Part shown: piece by piece, positions 15,545 through 24,665 of the stretch
Layout: every line of letters starts with the position of its first letter
Position numbering within the stretch: the stretch's first letter is position 1
Source of the DNA: an uncultured Gammaproteobacteria bacterium
GTDB lineage: Bacteria; Pseudomonadota; Gammaproteobacteria; PS1; Pseudothioglobaceae
Assembly (NCBI GenBank): GCA_937896195.1
Contig: CALBNC010000081.1
Coordinates: forward strand, 5,218 to 69,217
Length of the DNA: 64,000 nucleotides
Reading direction: 5' to 3'
Program-made: the position numbers and the translations under genes
The notes under the pieces: generated by a model
Told to the model about the DNA's origin: nothing
Database searches by the model: none
Seen by the model: only the letters and a program-made list of their open reading frames with translations

Positions 15545-16558
15545 CTAAATCGGTGAAGCAATTAATTGAGCATCATTTAAGCCATTTTCGAGTAAGAATT
15601 CACCTAGATAAATCAACACTTCGGCAGGTGCAGAAATATAGACTTCTGATTGGTTTACAATGTCCTGATCCAAAGAATCATAAATTTTCTTTGCAACTTT
15701 ATGGCAATCATTATGACTGTTTCGATCAAATTCACATGCAATCGGCTGATAATGATAATCATCCATCACAGCATTCCAAGATTGCGCATGGTTATCAAAA
15801 TAAGGGCGGGGCTCAACACTTGGATAAGCCCAGTAAAAATAAACAGGATTAGGCATTTCCAATGAAAAAGCATGCTCAACCAGGCTCCTAATGGGTGCAA
15901 ATCCCCCATCCCATGCGATAAAAACCATAGGCTTGTCTGACGTTTCTTTAAGAACAAATACACCTTTAGGGCCTGTTAGATCAACTTTATCTTTATCCTT
16001 GATTTTATGAGAAAAAATTAATTGTGAAAATTCATCAATATCAAGATTTCGAATATGAAACTCAAGCTCCATACCATGACACGGGCATGAGGCAATAGGG
16101 TAGCGAGATACTACCCCTTTAAAGTTTAACTCAACATCCTGTCCTGCCATAAACTGTAAATTTTTAGAGCGTGGCGTTCTTAGACTAACAATCGCCATGT
16201 TTTCGTTAACAAAACGAATATCTTTAATTTTAGTCTGAATTTCTTGAAGAGGAATTAAACGAACATCTCCAATCAAATCAAGCTCAAGCTCAAGATTTGA
16301 TCTGGGTGCGTGACAGCACATTAAAAACTCTTGATTATCTATCTCTTCAGCAGTGAGGGCGTAATCATGGTGTTTGATCTTTTTAATATCACCCTTAACA
16401 AGTTTAGCTTTACACGCGCCACAAGTGCCATTACTACACTCATAGCGCATCGACAAGCCATGGCGAAGGCCACCATCAAGAATAGATTCTGAGTGAGCGC
16501 ATTCAAATAATTTTTCCTGGCCTTGAAGTTTAACTTGATAAAGATTTGAATGATTCAT
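15545..16558 (-). CDS. 2Fe-2S ferredoxin + FAD/NAD(P)-binding oxidoreductase-like protein with divergent motifs
   Basis: YECSNGTCGAC...LMCC cluster, followed by FNR-like beta-barrel and NAD domain (IAWDGGFAPIRS, YFYW). Confidence 0.75.
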   Translation of the reverse strand: MNHSNLYQVKLQGQEKLFECAHSESILDGGLRHGLSMRYECSNGTCGACKAKLVKGDIKKIKHHDYALTAEEIDNQEFLMCCHAPRSNLELELDLIGDVRLIPLQEIQTKIKDIRFVNENMAIVSLRTPRSKNLQFMAGQDVELNFKGVVSRYPIASCPCHGMELEFHIRNLDIDEFSQLIFSHKIKDKDKVDLTGPKGVFVLKETSDKPMVFIAWDGGFAPIRSLVEHAFSLEMPNPVYFYWAYPSVEPRPYFDNHAQSWNAVMDDYHYQPIACEFDRNSHNDCHKVAKKIYDSLDQDIVNQSEVYISAPAEVLIYLGEFLLENGLNDAQLIASPI

Positions 16559-16725
16559 TGGAGTTAACAGGGTAGCGGTTAATAATATTGTTTTAATTGT
16601 TAAACAAATTATACAATTACTTTATAACCCTACTCATTTAATAATGACTATGAAACATATCAATATTATCATTGCCCTTATAAAAATATCATTACGCTTT
16701 TTACGACTTTTACAATAAAACCAAC

Positions 16726-16764
16726 TGATTCATTTGAATAATGTTACAATATTCAAATGAATCA
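16726..16764. promoter_or_regulatory. 39-bp palindrome enclosing an extended -10 promoter and the umuD start codon; candidate operator
   Basis: TGATTCATTTGAATA-ATGTTACAA-TATTCAAATGAATCA with 15-bp perfect arms; TGnTACAAT at 16742-16750; ATG at 16757. Confidence 0.75.
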
Positions 16765-17344
16765 AAAAATACAAACTCATGGTGGCGCCAGAACAGGCGC
16801 AGGTCGTAAGAAAAATTCGGGTAAATTTAAAGAAGATACCAAGGTAATGCGTGTGCCAATTAGCCTAGTAAGAACTGTTAAATCTACTTTAAATATATAT
16901 AAATCTCAATTAAAGTCTGAAATAGAAGTGCTTGAGCCAGACTTTAATGCGCCCAATATTTTTATCCCTATTTTTTCCTCACGTGTACAGGCCGGATTTC
17001 CATCTCCTGCAGATGATCACTTAGAAGACCGTCTTGACTTAAACAAGCATCTAATTCATCATCAGGAGTCTACTTTTTTTGTACGTGCACAAGGTGAATC
17101 AATGTTAAATGCTGGAATTCATCCGGGTGACATTCTGGTAGTGGACAAGTCTCTACTTGCTAAAAGTGGCAAAATAGTTATCGCCGTAGTGGACGGTGAA
17201 TTTACTGTTAAGCGACTACATAAATACAAAGGAAAAATTAGCTTAAAAGCTGAAAATCCAGAATTTAAAGATATTGAAATTAGCGAAGGCAATGAGCTTA
17301 TTATTTGGGGCGTTGTTACGTCAACCATTCATCAATATGCCTAA
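16757..17344 (+). CDS. umuD: UmuD/LexA S24 autopeptidase with N-terminal extension (UmuDAb-like)
   Basis: Cleavage site [11 protein letters not shown], catalytic Ser (GESM) and Lys (TVKRL); extra N-terminal [11 protein letters not shown]...TKVMRVP domain. Confidence 0.9.
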
Positions 17345-18587
17345 ATTCAAAGGGCAAAAATTTGCACTCATTGATTGCAATAATTTCTATGCATCCTGTG
17401 AACGAGTGTTTGAACCTAAATTAGAGAGAGAGCCTATTGTAGTTCTCAGTAACAACGATGGCTGTATTATCGCACGCTCTAATGAAGCTAAATCACTCGG
17501 CATTAAGATGGGTGTGCCGTATTACCAAATGAAAGACTTAATGATTAGTAAATCAGTCGTGGTTAAGTCATCTAATTATCCTTTGTATGGTGACATGTCA
17601 TCTCGAGTAATGAAAGTTATTAGCCAATATTCACCAATACAAGAGGTGTATTCAATTGACGAAAGCTTCTTAGATTTATCAGGCTTTACAATAAACTTGA
17701 ATACATACATGCAAACACTGAAAAACCAGGTTAAATCATGGACGGGTATTCCCGTTTGCGTAGGTATGGGAAGCACAAAGGTACGAGCAAAACTAGCCAA
17801 TCGTATTGCTAAAATTTACCCCAGGTTTAATGGGGTATTTGATATAGACAACTTGCCAATTGAGCGTTTTGAAAAGCTATTAGATTCTTTTGAGGTAGTT
17901 GATATATGGGGTGTTGGAAACAAATCAGCCCAAAAGCTACAGCAGATAGGAATCAACAGTGCTTATGACTTTTACAAAGCTGATATTGGAATTATTGAAA
18001 CCTTATTAGGCGTTAACGGCAAGCGTATATATAGAGAGCTATATGGTTATTCGTGTCTTGCCATAGAAGAAATTGGACCAATTAGGAAGCAAATTGTATC
18101 TTCACGCTCTTTTGGACTCGATTTAAGTGATTTTGACGAGATAAACCAAGCATTAACTAGTTTAACCAGAAAGGCAGTAAATAGGCTTAATCAGAAGTCA
18201 TTAGCAGCCACCTCGATGAGTGTTTTTATTTATACAAACCCTTTTAAGAGAGATATTTCACGCATCAGTCTATCTAAGACTGTTGGCATGATTACACCTA
18301 TTAGCGACGAAAGAGTATTGATACCATTATGTTCAAAGTTACTTAAGCAAATTTACGAACCAGGCTATAAGTTTTATAAGGGCGGGGTTATGTTGGGAAG
18401 CCTAACAACAGATAAAAGCCAACAAGACTTATTTATGGCTAGTAACAAAACTCAATCATTACATAAGCACCCATATGGAAAATTATTACGATATGCGAGC
18501 GAACTTGGTAATGAGCGCTGGCTACCAAGAAGTGATTTTCAATCTAGCAGATTCACGACTGATTGGTCTGAAATATTAAGTGTTTAA
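17337..18587 (+). CDS. umuC: Y-family DNA polymerase V subunit
   Basis: [39 protein letters not shown]-terminal SRFTTDWSE; start MPKF overlaps umuD stop. Confidence 0.93.
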
Positions 18588-18661
18588 AGATATAACCCAA
18601 AAAGTAAGGTTAAATTAGCAGGGGATAGGATAAAAGAGAATTAAATATATAAATATTTTTT

Positions 18662-18689
18662 ATTTAACATAATATAAATTATACGAACT
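18662..18689 (-). other. dif site (XerCD chromosome dimer resolution)
   Basis: Minus strand AGTTCGTATAA-TTTATA-TTATGTTAAAT: XerD arm identical to E. coli dif, XerC arm close, 6-bp spacer. Confidence 0.92.
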
Positions 18690-18719
18690 ATATATAAGTA
18701 ATAAAAAATCAATTAATGA

Positions 18720-19061
18720 CTAGCTTTTACTAAGATTAGTATCGATAAAGTTACGTACAAAGTCCGGAGTTTGTGCTGAATGAAAACGATCAACCTCTTC
18801 ACCATTAATAAAGGCAATAACAGTTGGAAAGCCACGAACAGCATAGCGTCCAGCAATTTTCATATTTTCATCTTCCGCTTCAATTTTAGCCAATAAAAAC
18901 TCTTTCTCATCATACTCCAAAGCTACAGAATTAATGATTGGCTCTAACACGTTGCACGGACCACACCACTCAGCTGAGATATCTAAAACCACTAACCGAT
19001 GGTGAGATTCATCAAGTACAAGCGCTTCAAAATTGTCAACATTAATCTCTAAAGCAGACAT
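18720..19061 (-). CDS. Thioredoxin family protein
   Basis: WCGPC active site, GFPT cis-Pro motif. Confidence 0.88.
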   Translation of the reverse strand: MSALEINVDNFEALVLDESHHRLVVLDISAEWCGPCNVLEPIINSVALEYDEKEFLLAKIEAEDENMKIAGRYAVRGFPTVIAFINGEEVDRFHSAQTPDFVRNFIDTNLSKS

Positions 19062-19063
19062 AA

Positions 19064-19744
19064 TTAGTGACGTCTAATGGTGTTAAGGTCAAAATGTCGA
19101 CGCTTATTTTTACGATAAATAGGGAAAATAGCGATCAATAATACAATCAAAATGGCGACACTTAAATAAATCCAATTAGTGTTCAAATTACCCATAAAAG
19201 AGAAGAGATAATTATCTTGAGATAGTGGATCTACATCGTCAGAATTTTCTAATTTAGGTGAGATTTCATTTGTATTAGTTGCTCTTTCTGACTGATTGTA
19301 AGCTGTATTTGAATCCTTAAAATCAGCTTTAAGCTTTACTATGTAAGCATTTAAATGATTATTTTCGACCTCTAATAAAGAGTTTTTATGGGTGAGAATT
19401 TTTATTTTTTCTTTAAATTGTCCTAATAATTTCTCTTGAATTACCAGCGCATTAGGTGTTTTTTTAGTATTATTTTCGTCTGAAAGAGGGGGTGTAGATG
19501 TCAGATTTTCAGACAAAATCCAACCATTTAGACCATCAAGACTAACAAAAGACCACCCAGAATAATGCATTGTTAACCGCTGCAATGGTTGATTCTTGCC
19601 CACAACCTTAATGACATTCTTATTATTAAGGTTGACTCTATCTGATCGGATAACACTATCATCATTAATTGCAAAAACAGTGGAACTGGCTAATGAACTA
19701 AAACTCAATAGCAGTGAAAAAATCAAGAAAAAAAATCTACTCAT
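19064..19744 (-). CDS. Exported SH3-domain protein with coiled coil and C-terminal TM anchor (YgiM-like)
   Basis: Signal peptide, SH3b-like GWSFVSLDGLNGWILSENL, coiled coil, TM helix then basic tail. Confidence 0.6.
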   Translation of the reverse strand: MSRFFFLIFSLLLSFSSLASSTVFAINDDSVIRSDRVNLNNKNVIKVVGKNQPLQRLTMHYSGWSFVSLDGLNGWILSENLTSTPPLSDENNTKKTPNALVIQEKLLGQFKEKIKILTHKNSLLEVENNHLNAYIVKLKADFKDSNTAYNQSERATNTNEISPKLENSDDVDPLSQDNYLFSFMGNLNTNWIYLSVAILIVLLIAIFPIYRKNKRRHFDLNTIRRH

Positions 19745-19925
19745 ATCTAAAATAAATAGCTAAAAATTAGTCATATTATAAGGTGAAAATACAAAAAAAC
19801 CAAAAAATAAGGGGTTAAATCAATAAATTACTTAAAAATCAATGACTTATATATTATAATTAAAAATGCCTAATTTTTAACGATTCAACACCAGTCCAAG
19901 TACTTTCCTTGATTTTATGAGAAAA

Positions 19926-19950
19926 CCTCTTAAATCTAAAATTTAAGAGG
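19926..19950 (-). terminator. Probable terminator after the 20009-20437 gene
   Basis: CCTCTTAAAT-CTAAA-ATTTAAGAGG perfect 10-bp stem followed by TTTTC on the minus strand. Confidence 0.55.
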
Positions 19951-20008
19951 AATAGCGAAAAAATAGCAAAATTTTGACTATTTTATGGTTAATCGTCGTT
20001 TTGCCGTA

Positions 20009-20437
20009 CTAAATTATCTTGGAACGAGAAAACTTACTTGTTAATCTATATTTTTGTTTTGGACTTTTTGGTTTTTCTGGAATAGTACGTTCAAAAAAAT
20101 GACAATCCAATAAAGGATTTAAAATATCATTCTTAAATCGATGCTTATGTGTGCGTTTTAAAATTTTCATCAGCTCGTCAGCGCTACTTTCCAGTTGGCA
20201 ATTTCTTAATACTTGAACTTGCTCCGAGCTTATTTCTTCTATCTTGCAACTTAGTCCATTCTTAGTACTTGATACATCTATAGATACTTCTTCATCAATG
20301 TTTTCTTTAAAAATGAATCCTTGCTGTTCAGCTGAATTTGAAATTGAATTATCAAGCTTTAAATCTTTATTCCAACCTTGCTTATCATCAAGTTTTTGAT
20401 CCAACTTTTGTTTTTTGTTTTTTCCAAACCAGGCCAT
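20009..20437 (-). CDS. Hypothetical protein with a Fic-associated C-terminal winged-helix-like domain
   Basis: ILNPLL...ERTIPEKPKSPKQKYRLT matches the tail common in Fic/AlbA-type proteins; no Fic catalytic motif. Confidence 0.6.
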   Translation of the reverse strand: MAWFGKNKKQKLDQKLDDKQGWNKDLKLDNSISNSAEQQGFIFKENIDEEVSIDVSSTKNGLSCKIEEISSEQVQVLRNCQLESSADELMKILKRTHKHRFKNDILNPLLDCHFFERTIPEKPKSPKQKYRLTSKFSRSKII

Positions 20438-20540
20438 AATAAAGATTTGTATAAGATTGATAAGCTTAGTTTATCAAAACTAAACCCGTAATTAGATAAA
20501 TAACACTTAAAAATGCCTTAAAGCATCTTTTAAATTAGAT

Positions 20541-21305
20541 TTAATTGGTTAATATCTGATCTAGAAACAGTTGTAAACGCTCTGATTCAGGATTATCAAA
20601 GAACTTATCAGGTGTATTTTGCTCAATAACCTGACCTTCATCCATAAAGATGACACGATCTGCAACCTTCTTAGCAAAGCCCATCTCATGAGTCACACAG
20701 AGCATAGTAATGCCTTCTTTAGCAAGTTCGATCATAACATCTAACACTTCTGAAATCATCTCTGGATCAAGCGCTGATGTCGGCTCATCAAATAACATTA
20801 TTTTAGGTGAAGTACATAACGCCCTAGCAATTGCAACACGCTGTTGCTGACCACCTGAAAGCTGATTTGGATATTTTTCAGCTTGGTCCTTGATACCAAC
20901 TCTATCTAATAGAGTTAATGCTTTTTCTTTTGCTTGCTGCTTAGTTTCATTGTGTACCCAGATTGGTGCTAGTGTTAAATTATCAATGATACTTAAATGA
21001 GGAAATAAGTTGAAATGTTGAAATACCATTGACACTTCAGAGCGCACTTGTCTGATTTTTTTAACATCGTCTGTTAGCTCAGTCCCATCAACTACGATAG
21101 AGCCCTCTTGAAACTTCTCAAGAAAATTTATACAGCGAATTAAAGTAGATTTTCCACTACCTGACGGTCCACAAATAACAATGATTTCACCTTCTTTAAC
21201 CGTTAAATCGATATTTTTTAATGCATGGAACTCTCCATACCACTTATTCAGTCCTTTAATTTCAATAATATCGCAGCAAAGTCTGTCATCTGTTGGATTG
21301 CTCAT
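20541..21305 (-). CDS. aapP: Polar amino acid ABC transporter ATP-binding subunit (AapP/BztD)
   Basis: GPSGSGKST, LSGGQQQRVAIARAL, MLFDEPTSALDPE. Confidence 0.9.
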   Translation of the reverse strand: MSNPTDDRLCCDIIEIKGLNKWYGEFHALKNIDLTVKEGEIIVICGPSGSGKSTLIRCINFLEKFQEGSIVVDGTELTDDVKKIRQVRSEVSMVFQHFNLFPHLSIIDNLTLAPIWVHNETKQQAKEKALTLLDRVGIKDQAEKYPNQLSGGQQQRVAIARALCTSPKIMLFDEPTSALDPEMISEVLDVMIELAKEGITMLCVTHEMGFAKKVADRVIFMDEGQVIEQNTPDKFFDNPESERLQLFLDQILTN

Positions 21306-21321
21306 AAACTTCCTTCCTTTT

Positions 21322-22422
21322 TTAATTTTTATGTTCTGTGCTAAATCTTACTTCAAGTTTTTTTGAGTAGCGACTCATAGAATATAGTATGACCCACATA
21401 ACAAAAGCAACAAAAACATAGCCCTCTGAGTTTCTGCCTAGCCAACTAGAATTACTTGTGGCTGCACCTACTATTGCCAACATGTCATATAGACCAATAA
21501 TTAAGATCAACGTCGTATCTTTAAATAATGCGATAAATGATCCTACGATATTAGGGATGGATATTTTTAAAGCTTGTGGCAGAATGATAAGGGTAGTTTT
21601 TTGTACAAAATTTAAACCTGAAGCGTCCGCTGCCTCATATTGACCTTTAGGAATCGCTTGCAGCCCACCTCTTATAACCTCTGCAATATAGGCTGTTTGA
21701 AAAAGAGTTATACCAATTAGAGCTCTAAGTAATTTATCAAAATCCATGCCTACTGAAAAGAATAGAGGCAATATAACTGATGCCATAAACAAAATAGTAA
21801 TCAATGGCACACCTCTTACAAATTCAATAAACACAACTGAAATAAATTTCACGATGCGCATTTTAGACTGCCGCCCTAAAGCAAATAAAATACCTAATGG
21901 AAAAGAAGCGACAATACCAACGGCAGCCACTACAATGGTCAAGGTAAGTCCGCCCCATTTATCAGTTCCAACAACTTCTAAACCTAGCCCTCCATGCAGT
22001 AAGAAAAAGGCAGCAATAGGATATACTAAGAAAGCACCAATAATATAATGCATTCTGTATTGTGATTTTTTAATCCAAGATCCGAACATGATCATTACTA
22101 CAATAAGGCCAAACATGGTGTCAATACGCCACAATTCCTCTTGCGGGTAGAATCCATAAATAAACATTTTGAAATTATCATAAATGAAAGCCCAGCAAGC
22201 GCCCTCTCGACCACAAGAGTCATTGTCCGCAGTTAAATCAAAATTGGCATCAAAAATTGTCCAGTTTAAAATAGGTGGCAAGATTAGATAAATAAGATAC
22301 AGTGCTGTAAGAGTAAGTAAAACATTAGATGTAGATGAAAGTAAGTTCTCTTTCAGCCATTGGATTGCCTTAGTTTGCGATTGTGGCGCTTTTTTTGTTT
22401 CTTTTAACGGATAGACTGCCAT
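21322..22422 (-). CDS. aapM: Amino acid ABC transporter permease (AapM)
   Basis: WGGLTLT, EFVRGVPLI, AYIAEVIRGGLQAIPKGQYEAA. Confidence 0.88.
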   Translation of the reverse strand: MAVYPLKETKKAPQSQTKAIQWLKENLLSSTSNVLLTLTALYLIYLILPPILNWTIFDANFDLTADNDSCGREGACWAFIYDNFKMFIYGFYPQEELWRIDTMFGLIVVMIMFGSWIKKSQYRMHYIIGAFLVYPIAAFFLLHGGLGLEVVGTDKWGGLTLTIVVAAVGIVASFPLGILFALGRQSKMRIVKFISVVFIEFVRGVPLITILFMASVILPLFFSVGMDFDKLLRALIGITLFQTAYIAEVIRGGLQAIPKGQYEAADASGLNFVQKTTLIILPQALKISIPNIVGSFIALFKDTTLILIIGLYDMLAIVGAATSNSSWLGRNSEGYVFVAFVMWVILYSMSRYSKKLEVRFSTEHKN

Positions 22423-22427
22423 AATAG

Positions 22428-23591
22428 TTATTTACCCTTAATTTCCATTTTCTTGTTAAAAATATTTAGGACTAATGATATAAAGAGTGAGATCGTCAAA
22501 TACACCAACATTGTCAATGCAATAACTTCAATTGCTTGGCCTACTACATTTAAGACCGTGCCTGAAAATATAGTAACCAACTCTGAATAGCCAACTGCTG
22601 TTGCTAAAGAGGAGTTTTTAGTGAGATTTAAGTATTGGTTAATAATTGGCGGTATCGCGACTCTTAGTGCTTGTGGTAACACCACTAAACGCATTGCCTG
22701 ACCTTGTCTTAATCCTAACGCTGCTGCTGCTTCTTTTTGCCCTTTATCCACCGAATCAATGCCTGATCGAATGGCTTCAGCAATGTAGGTAGCCGTGTAA
22801 ACACTTAAAGCAAAAGCCAAGGAGAAGAACTCAATAGATAAGTCTGTGCCGCCTTGAAAATTAAAACCCTTTAAAGCTGGATACTCTAATTGCGCACCAA
22901 AAACAAAATAGGCCATAATTGGAAGTAGAACTACAAGTCCTAAAAAGTGAGGGATGGTATTGGTTGCAATCCCCGTATCATCGTGTTTTTTGGTGCTACG
23001 TTTTTTAATAAAAACATAAGCAACAATACCAATAATAAAACTTGCAAGTACGAGATAAAATTCAGTTCCTATAATAAATTTAGGCAAGAACAATCCTCTT
23101 GAATTGAGGAAAACACTATCCAAAAAATTCATACTATTTCTAGTAGATGGGAGAACGCTAAGCGCTGTTGAATACCAAAATAGAATTTGTAGTAATATCG
23201 GTATATTTCTAAAAATCTCAATATACACCGTAGCCATTTTTCTAATCAGATAGTTGCTAGATAAACGAGCAATACCAATAACAAGACCAATGACTGAAGC
23301 AAAAAATATACCTGTTATTGCAACAATTAAAGTGTTAACAATACCGACATAAAATGCCTGTAAATTAGTTGAAGTTGGTGAATACGTCAAAAAGAAATTA
23401 TCATTGACAGCAAAACCAGCTTCATCATTTAGAAAACCAAAACCACTTCTAATACCGCTTTGCTCAATGTTAAGCATCATGTTATCAAAAGCTTGATAAA
23501 CAAAATAAGCAATAAAAACAACCGCTAGCACTTGAAATGCAATCGCTCTAACTTCGTTGTTATATAGTAGTGATTTTAGTTTTATAAACAT
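22428..23591 (-). CDS. aapQ: Amino acid ABC transporter permease (AapQ)
   Basis: YIEIFRNIPILLQ, AEAIRSGI..V.KGQ.EAA, QYLNLTKNSSLA. Confidence 0.88.
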   Translation of the reverse strand: MFIKLKSLLYNNEVRAIAFQVLAVVFIAYFVYQAFDNMMLNIEQSGIRSGFGFLNDEAGFAVNDNFFLTYSPTSTNLQAFYVGIVNTLIVAITGIFFASVIGLVIGIARLSSNYLIRKMATVYIEIFRNIPILLQILFWYSTALSVLPSTRNSMNFLDSVFLNSRGLFLPKFIIGTEFYLVLASFIIGIVAYVFIKKRSTKKHDDTGIATNTIPHFLGLVVLLPIMAYFVFGAQLEYPALKGFNFQGGTDLSIEFFSLAFALSVYTATYIAEAIRSGIDSVDKGQKEAAAALGLRQGQAMRLVVLPQALRVAIPPIINQYLNLTKNSSLATAVGYSELVTIFSGTVLNVVGQAIEVIALTMLVYLTISLFISLVLNIFNKKMEIKGK

Positions 23592-23657
23592 AAAAAACCT
23601 TTATAAAAAAAATGACCAACTGAAGTAGTTAGTCATTTTATATGTTTTATTTAGAGT

Positions 23658-24665
23658 TTATCTAAACGCTGGAGAGTACAAGATACCACCTTTAATCCAC
23701 AACTGGTTTACACCACGTGGAAGCGCAATAGGTGTCGACATACCAATGTTTCTCTCGAAACTTTCACCGTAGTTACCTACCTGTGAAACGATATTACGAG
23801 CCCAATCTTTGTTAAGACCTAAATGTTCATTAAGCTTACCAGTTTTACCTTGTAATCTTTGTACACCAGGACTAGTAGAGGTTCTGTCGATAGTAGCTGA
23901 AGTAACACCTAACTCTTCTGCTTCAATCATCGCATTAAGCGACCACTTAACAATATTAAACCAATTATCATCACCTTGACGAACTACAGGACCTAAAGGC
24001 TCTTTAGAAATAACATCACCCAAAACTACAGCAGAACTAGGATCTTTAAGTGTTGATCTAAGGCCAGCTAGTTGAGAAACGTCAGAAGTTAATGCATCAC
24101 AACGACCCGCTTCAAAGCCACCTTTGGTTTGTGGAGAAGTATCATAAGTAACAGCTTTAAACTTCATGTTATTTGAACGGAAATAATCAGCTAAATTAAG
24201 CTCAGTTGTTGTTCCTGCTTGAATACAAAAAGAAGCTCCATCTAAATCCTTAACACTATTAACGTCTAATGATTTTTTCACCATGAAACCTTGACCATCG
24301 TAGTAATTTACGCCGGCAAAGTTAAGGCCTAACGAATTGTCTCGAGTAGCTGTCCAGGTTGTATTACGTGATAACACATCGATTTCACCAGACTGTAGAG
24401 CGATAAAGCGCTCTTTTGCTGATAAAGGTACATATTTAACCTTTCGAGCATCGCCTAAAGTGGCTGCTGCAATAGCACGACAAACATCAACATCCATACC
24501 AGACCAGTTTCCACTTGAATCAGGATTAGAAAATCCAGGTGTTCCTGTTGATACACCACAGCTTAAGCTGCCTTGTGACTTAACGTCACTTAACGTATCT
24601 GCATTTACACTAAAGCCAGTAAAGACTAATAGCGATGCAGCTGAAAGTTTTAACAATTTATTCAT
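23658..24665 (-). CDS. aapJ: General L-amino acid ABC transporter periplasmic binding protein (AapJ)
   Basis: Signal peptide, GMDVDVCRAIAAA, LQSGEIDVLSRNTTWT, ISKEPLGPVVRQGD; start MNKLLK after GAGGGG SD. Confidence 0.9.
   Translation of the reverse strand: MNKLLKLSAASLLVFTGFSVNADTLSDVKSQGSLSCGVSTGTPGFSNPDSSGNWSGMDVDVCRAIAAATLGDARKVKYVPLSAKERFIALQSGEIDVLSRNTTWTATRDNSLGLNFAGVNYYDGQGFMVKKSLDVNSVKDLDGASFCIQAGTTTELNLADYFRSNNMKFKAVTYDTSPQTKGGFEAGRCDALTSDVSQLAGLRSTLKDPSSAVVLGDVISKEPLGPVVRQGDDNWFNIVKWSLNAMIEAEELGVTSATIDRTSTSPGVQRLQGKTGKLNEHLGLNKDWARNIVSQVGNYGESFERNIGMSTPIALPRGVNQLWIKGGILYSPAFR

Follow-up and report, generated by a model that had tools for sequence, protein, structure and literature searches.

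The umuD open reading frame at positions 16757-17344 (forward strand) of the 64,000-nucleotide stretch of DNA analyzed here, hereafter called the window, encodes a UmuDAb-family protein that probably acts as a self-repressing, self-cleaving switch on its own umuDC operon and yields UmuD'. The product of 195 amino acids was characterized by ORF analysis, Pfam and NCBIfam searches, and alignment. Its C-terminal domain is nearer to UmuD than to LexA: Pfam detects a Peptidase_S24 domain (PF00717) at residues 71-187 (E value 2.4e-33), and the NCBIfam UmuD model PRK10276 matches above its cut-off (165 bits), whereas the LexA model TIGR00498 remains below its cut-off (89.6 versus 110.95 bits) and covers only the C-terminal part. 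The same pattern is seen for Acinetobacter baumannii UmuDAb, with 157.5 bits for PRK10276 and 68.2 bits for the LexA model. The best match among solved structures was Escherichia coli UmuD (PDB 8gmt_B and 1umu), restricted to residues 68-190 (E value 8.6e-31). The predicted self-cleavage site Ala79-Gly80 (16991-16996) and the catalytic residues Ser115 (17099-17101) and Lys152 (17210-17212), all encoded on the forward strand, are invariant in an alignment of 27 long UmuD proteins from Thioglobaceae, Lysobacterales, Methylococcaceae, several Betaproteobacteria, Berkiella, Planctomycetota, and Acinetobacter. As the corresponding site in E. coli UmuD is Cys24-Gly25, the window protein carries about 55 extra N-terminal residues, close to the figure of about 60 given in a first-pass annotation of this DNA. 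The adjacent gene umuC (17343-18587, forward strand) encodes a protein of 414 amino acids with the domains IMS, IMS_C, IMS_HHH, and DUF4113 and a PRK03609 match of 341 bits. Its start codon overlaps the umuD stop codon (ATGCCTAA), and both genes are thus translationally coupled.

The same annotation had drawn an analogy to UmuDAb, which is supported by our data but was too cautious. The alignment of the N termini (55% identity over 38 amino acids, E value 3e-11) establishes that the N-terminal extension is homologous, and not merely analogous, to the UmuDAb head, and the proteins share 47 to 48% identity over residues 8-193 (E value of about 4e-56). The Acinetobacter loci used in these comparisons were taken from metagenome contigs by means of the probe from an electrophoretic mobility shift assay (EMSA), with the probe and primer sequences reported in PMC11332147. 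In three reference loci (L100, L108, and L111), the primers published for umuDAb and ddrR match exactly, and the 203-amino-acid protein of these loci shows, as published, A83-G84, S119, E24, K40, and the terminal residues LKRMR. Mutations at E24 and at K40/R41 of UmuDAb cause derepression in Acinetobacter baylyi, and N100 and G124 are dimer determinants. In our alignment, E24 corresponds to the near-invariant E26, K40 to K42, N100 to N96, and G124 to G120; R41 is not conserved, its counterpart being S43 in the window protein, while the Acinetobacter loci compared here have N41. A tree built from the C-terminal domain unites Acinetobacter UmuDAb with the Thioglobaceae proteins on a branch with a support of 100/99. 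This tree is otherwise poorly resolved and requires at least four changes between the labels long and short, with the Acinetobacter rows mislabelled as short.

The candidate operator

A 39-bp palindrome at 16726-16764, to which no strand is assigned, represents the candidate full operator footprint. Two perfect 15-nt arms, TGATTCATTTGAATA (16726-16740) and TATTCAAATGAATCA (16750-16764), are separated by the 9-nt spacer ATGTTACAA (16741-16749), and the umuD ATG (16757-16759) is located inside the right arm, so that the first-pass description of these arms, of the spacer, and of their position over the start codon was confirmed by reading the sequence. In an inverted-repeat search, the dyad was extendable to 19-nt arms with one mismatch (95% complementarity, centre at 16745). 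The palindrome is not a product of chance: perfect inverted repeats with 13-nt arms gave 0 to 3 seeds per Markov-1 genome of the same size, as opposed to about 50 loci in the real genome. Nearly all of these loci are terminator-like, whereas the window palindrome is AT-rich and not terminator-like.

The inner 23 bp of the palindrome (16734-16756, again without strand assignment) form a core operator of the UmuDAb type, TTGA-N5-GTTAC-N5-TCAA, which together with its flanks reads CAT-TTGA-ATAAT-GTTAC-AATAT-TCAA-ATG. The EMSA-defined UmuDAb operator is TTGA(N4)GTWAC(N4)TCAA, and the A. baumannii EMSA probe (PMC11332147) is AAC-TTGA-AAAT-GTAAC-TTTT-TCAA-GTT. The arms and the core of the window and Acinetobacter sites are identical, but each arm in the window is 1 bp farther from the core (N5 versus N4), and the binding geometry must therefore differ from that in Acinetobacter. 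The first-pass annotation had likened the motif TTGAA-N13-TTCAA to the Acinetobacter repeats; this spacing is correct for the window, but Acinetobacter has TTGAA-N11-TTCAA, i.e., 1 bp less per half-site, and the GTWAC core had not been remarked on. Outside Acinetobacter, N5-type spacing is the common one in the relatives examined.

The operator is conserved between species. In ten orthologous loci, the upstream DNA could not be aligned up to the block ATTTGAAT..TGTTACAATATTCAA, which abuts the ATG and is invariant except for two spacer positions, with third codon positions near saturation. The nearest orthologous locus is that of a Candidatus Thioglobus single-cell genome (L010). When palindromes were sought de novo upstream of long-umuD genes, the best one was of the type TTGAW-N4-GT(W)AC-N4-WTCAA at most of the proteobacterial loci examined, but not at those of Planctomycetota. 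The operator type was seen upstream of the Thioglobus/Pseudothioglobus orthologues and of several other proteobacterial orthologues, and in Pseudothioglobus the outer bases, AACTTGA...TCAAGTT, are the same as in Acinetobacter.

Within the 1.42-Mb genome, the site of the umuDC operon is the single match to the operator at 0 or 1 mismatch. Two-mismatch sites occurred at chance rate (12, compared to 3 to 13 in simulated genomes) and lie almost all within long ORFs, and no operator-like sequence was found upstream of recA. A wider operator regulon, sites of which the first-pass annotation had proposed to look for upstream of recA, uvr, and ssb, was rejected on these grounds.

The N-terminal head and its distribution

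The head and linker comprise residues 1-78 (16757-16990, forward strand), with a conserved core at residues 8-47 that is homologous to the N-terminal domain of UmuDAb. The conserved motif of the head is HGGAR.GAGRK...TKV.RVP.S, and its residues G9, G10, R12, G16, R17, R32, and P34 are invariant across the 27 long UmuD proteins. The linker-coding part of umuD also contains a perfect 11-nt inverted repeat, ATTAAAGTCTG / CAGACTTTAAT (16909-16919 / 16938-16948), with the two copies 18 nt apart. The head was not matched by any Pfam family, even at an E value of 10, and a sequence search of the PDB returned matches to the C-terminal domain only. The AlphaFold2 model obtained with 27 sequences (mean pLDDT of 72.8) has a well-modelled C-terminal domain, whereas the head appears as a single helix (residues 35-51) following a low-confidence Gly/Arg-rich arm (residues 1-34, with pLDDT values of 42 to 57 for residues 1-30). 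The three-helix, LexA-like winged helix-turn-helix (HTH) that has been proposed for the UmuDAb head in the literature, based on I-TASSER, is not reproduced by this model. In many family members, the arm contains G-R-P, which resembles the core of an AT-hook, and the spacers of the operator are rich in A and T. These two features are suggestive of minor-groove contacts, and we speculate that the head may contact the DNA in this way. The head (protein residues 7-57; window 16757-16951) also matches phrog_21736 (E value 1.7e-8, whole protein) and phrog_8312, two function-unassigned PHROGs, which indicates that the head module circulates in phages too.

A domain that lacks a Pfam family and a solved relative, and of which AlphaFold2 provides a poor model, might have a function other than DNA binding; the palindrome would then be the operator of some other regulator, and the UmuD extension would serve partner binding or stability control. 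There is a parallel in A. baumannii, where the TetR-like EppR is a second repressor at error-prone polymerase genes (PMC12242105). We nevertheless consider this reading improbable, since the head and the operator type co-occur in distant lineages, A. baylyi needs the homologous head for repression, and operators of this type are bound by UmuDAb in EMSA. Furthermore, no regulator gene adjoins the umuDC operon, and the operator occurs only once in this genome.

In an even sample of 400 gammaproteobacterial genomes, the head profile found a match in 44 (about 11%), which represent 37 of the 309 genera, and most of the matches lie in open frames of 170 to 310 amino acids. The wording "distant marine lineage" of the first-pass annotation thus suggested a rarity that was overstated, although its reading of the locus as a regulatory circuit is supported. 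LexA above the TIGR00498 cut-off was present in 253 of the 400 sampled genomes, each of which is at least 90% complete. Full-length LexA was also found in 15 of the 37 strong head-positive genomes, and the Fisher test of head versus LexA gave an odds ratio of 0.36 (p = 0.004), a value that ignores kinship between genomes. Genomes without LexA are hence enriched for the module, which does not, however, require such a background. LexA was likewise present in 4 of the 15 other long-UmuD genomes that were reached through their loci. The LexA-less share of the gammaproteobacterial sample is in itself larger than textbook accounts suggest. When the 75-residue head was compared with 1.84 billion representative proteins, 99 matches were obtained, which correspond to S24 fusions of about 190 to 220 amino acids and to short proteins, some of them fragment-like.

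Predicted promoter, translation start, and genome context

An extended -10-like element, TGTTACAAT (16742-16750, forward strand), was read from the sequence within the operator. The gap between this element and the ATG is six nucleotides, and its last T lies 7 nt ahead of the A of the ATG, which places the predicted transcription start at 16757, on the A of the ATG itself. The umuDC mRNA is hence probably leaderless. There is no GGAGG-like Shine-Dalgarno sequence before the umuD ATG, as the first-pass annotation had stated together with the -10 element; recA of the same genome has AGGAG. A -35 element was not found, and a consensus promoter scan, which requires one, made no call at TGTTACAAT.

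As RNA, the palindrome folds into a hairpin of -16.1 kcal/mol (z score of -6.6) that contains the AUG within its stem. It may consequently be asked whether the palindrome acts as RNA instead of as a protein operator, namely, as a leader hairpin that hides the AUG or as an element that terminates or insulates upstream transcription. Weak promoter-like matches at 16564-16591 and 16644-16672 would be in line with such a role, but matches of this kind are no commoner than in shuffled sequences (8 versus 10.0 expected). The conservation concerns specific bases, including the unpaired centre GTTAC, and there are no compensatory changes. In addition, the hairpin is not followed by a T-tract, and in Pseudothioglobus the site is located upstream of the ATG and does not cover it. 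A purely RNA-based function is accordingly very improbable. A hairpin formed by read-through from upstream, which would bury the AUG, may insulate the operon and could still provide a secondary safeguard.

It is hardly credible that the protein is an ordinary UmuD with a miscalled start, translated from Met31 and preceded by an untranslated leader, because, despite an in-frame ATG at codon 31 and the missing Shine-Dalgarno sequence before codon 1, the pattern of variable sites in codons 8-47 (18, 7, and 37 of 40 at codon positions 1, 2, and 3, respectively, in ten orthologues) is that of a translated head subject to purifying selection, the peptide motif has been retained from Acinetobacter through to Planctomycetota, and the start at 16757 is fixed by a stop codon that precedes the ATG by five codons.

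The genome (38% GC, estimated completeness of 99.98%), that of a marine sulfur bacterium whose close protein relatives bear the name Candidatus Thioglobus, contains recA but neither lexA nor ddrR. The sole genome-wide TIGR00498 match is the umuD ORF, below the cut-off and in the C-terminal part only, and no match to LexA_DNA_bind was obtained at its cut-off. None of the 81 genomes of the taxonomic family has a lexA above the cut-off, and in 34 of them, from 8 of the 19 genera, the LexA model gives the match typical of long UmuD proteins, which stays below the threshold and is mostly confined to the C-terminal part. A genome-wide tblastn search with DdrR of locus L101 gave no match better than an E value of 2.2, and the intergenic region beside the operon has no ORF suitable as ddrR. 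The genome is also devoid of a WYL regulator. No CTGT-N8-ACAG box with up to one mismatch is present in 16170-24393, and perfect boxes are fewer than expected by chance in the whole genome (8, compared to 12 to 23 in simulated genomes). The first-pass statements that an E. coli-type box and an adjacent ddrR-like gene are lacking were hence borne out, the latter for the entire genome, and lexA, the presence of which it had left to be checked, is absent. The only other Peptidase_S24 match above the cut-off in this genome is an ORF of about 135 amino acids (L004; G000:C103:1483-1752) directly after an fpg/mutM-like gene. This ORF lacks a DNA-binding domain, has GSYMEP in place of G-D/E-S-M, and has no NCBIfam match.

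The chromosomal dif site ATTTAACATAATATAAATTATACGAACT (18662-18689, no strand assigned) is located 75 bp downstream of umuC and shows the context in which the cassette was inserted. Three relatives that lack umuDC (L119, 2107-2134; L120, 6057; L121, 1550) have dif within about 55 to 75 bp after the same reductase gene, and at least two of these continue with an apparent ferrochelatase-like gene, followed by trx. In the window, umuDC separates the reductase gene from dif, and there is no ferrochelatase-like gene at that position. The cassette is therefore an insertion at the terminus-side hotspot; in other genomes (L012 and L023), umuDC is found in other contexts. A Xer-integrated element was considered and rejected, since no second dif-like site with up to 8 mismatches out of 28 was detected upstream of umuD and a 9-nt match (AAATTATAC) is too short.

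The proposed circuit and its relation to known systems

For this lineage, we infer from sequence that the protein binds DNA and is cleaved, where transcription starts, and that damage induces the operon, and the following mechanism is proposed. The roughly 55 extra N-terminal residues would form a small DNA-binding head, and the full-length UmuD dimer would bind TTGA-N5-GTTAC-N5-TCAA over TGTTACAAT, the predicted start, and the ATG, thereby excluding RNA polymerase. Upon DNA damage, RecA-ssDNA filaments would stimulate self-cleavage at Ala79-Gly80 by Ser115/Lys152. The head would be split from the dimerizing C-terminal domain, repression would be lost, and the operon would be transcribed, probably as a leaderless mRNA. 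The same cleavage product would be UmuD', which would join the co-translated UmuC as Pol V. The only contribution of the host to this circuit would be recA. As umuD is fused into a umuDC operon, one protein must be both the repressor and the UmuD' precursor, and there is a precedent for this dual role, since UmuD1389 (UmuDAb), once cleaved, supports mutagenesis by Pol V (PMC13062779).

Reviews and a paper from the Erill laboratory treat UmuDAb as a feature of the Moraxellaceae, and the literature searched presents it as peculiar to Acinetobacter or the Moraxellaceae. None of the openly accessible papers on UmuDAb that our search reached mentions Thioglobus, and in those consulted we came across no account of the family beyond the Moraxellaceae. 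The ddrR gene has been described as Acinetobacter-specific; it therefore defines the Acinetobacter system and not the protein family. A full homologue with a cognate-type operator is fixed in a LexA-less marine clade, and the head occurs in about 11% of the sampled genomes, so that UmuDAb seems to be one example of a self-contained mutagenesis switch that is widespread. Thioglobaceae/SUP05 are an abundant ocean lineage. NCBIfam names such proteins as a Pol V subunit only, and their likely regulatory role is thus invisible in annotation. We tentatively extend these considerations to a broader proposal, which we hold with less than even confidence. The UmuDAb design may have arisen outside Acinetobacter as an old, portable, and host-independent Pol V cassette, composed of a long umuD, umuC, and the operator and depending on RecA only, that occurs in Betaproteobacteria, in Planctomycetota, and in about one in ten gammaproteobacterial species. 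The SUP05/Thioglobaceae clade, which lacks LexA, might have no other transcription switch that senses RecA. The head might be an uncatalogued DNA-binding module in which a G-A-G-R-K/P arm resembling an AT-hook is joined to an extended segment and a single helix, and not the winged HTH assumed to date, and it would read GTWAC and the AT-rich spacers in a manner unlike the reading of the LexA box.

The system shares features with several known regulators. Like LexA (TIGR00498), it would be a RecA-stimulated, self-cleaving S24 repressor with a palindromic operator over its own promoter, as predicted here. However, LexA has an unrelated N-terminal domain, and the window protein has no match to LexA_DNA_bind (PF01726); the CTGT-N8-ACAG box and the multigene regulon of LexA are both missing here. 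E. coli UmuD is likewise encoded directly upstream of umuC, but no more than 24 residues precede its cleavage site, it is not a DNA-binding protein, and LexA controls it. Phage lambda CI, when expressed from PRM, is also an S24 self-cleaving repressor with an operator that overlaps its own promoter and a leaderless mRNA. Unlike the window UmuD, it has an unrelated HTH DNA-binding domain, functions in lysogeny, and has no polymerase partner. HdiR of the Streptococcaceae (PMC8565304) is, similarly, a non-LexA S24 regulator of a minimal, polymerase-centred damage regulon, but it groups with phage repressors and not with UmuD and has another DNA-binding domain.

The closest system is UmuDAb of A. 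baumannii and A. baylyi (A1S_1389 / ACIAD2729). Shared features are the two-domain layout, the head motif, the Ala-Gly site, the Ser/Lys dyad, and a C-terminal domain closer to UmuD, as well as the TTGA/TCAA arms and the GTWAC core in the protein's own promoter, a host with recA and without LexA, and a regulon confined to error-prone polymerase genes. The two systems differ in that Acinetobacter has DdrR, which is needed for full repression, whereas the window genome lacks it, and in the length of the site (21 bp in Acinetobacter versus 23 bp in the window). The Acinetobacter operator overlaps the -35 element, whereas that of the window covers the -10 element, the predicted start site, and the ATG. 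In the window, umuD and umuC form one operon in which the stop codon of the first overlaps the start codon of the second, an arrangement found in some Acinetobacter species only, and its regulon consists of a single target. With no DdrR, one target, and an operator placed on the promoter core, the window locus is a well-suited, simpler system in which to study how the head reads DNA.
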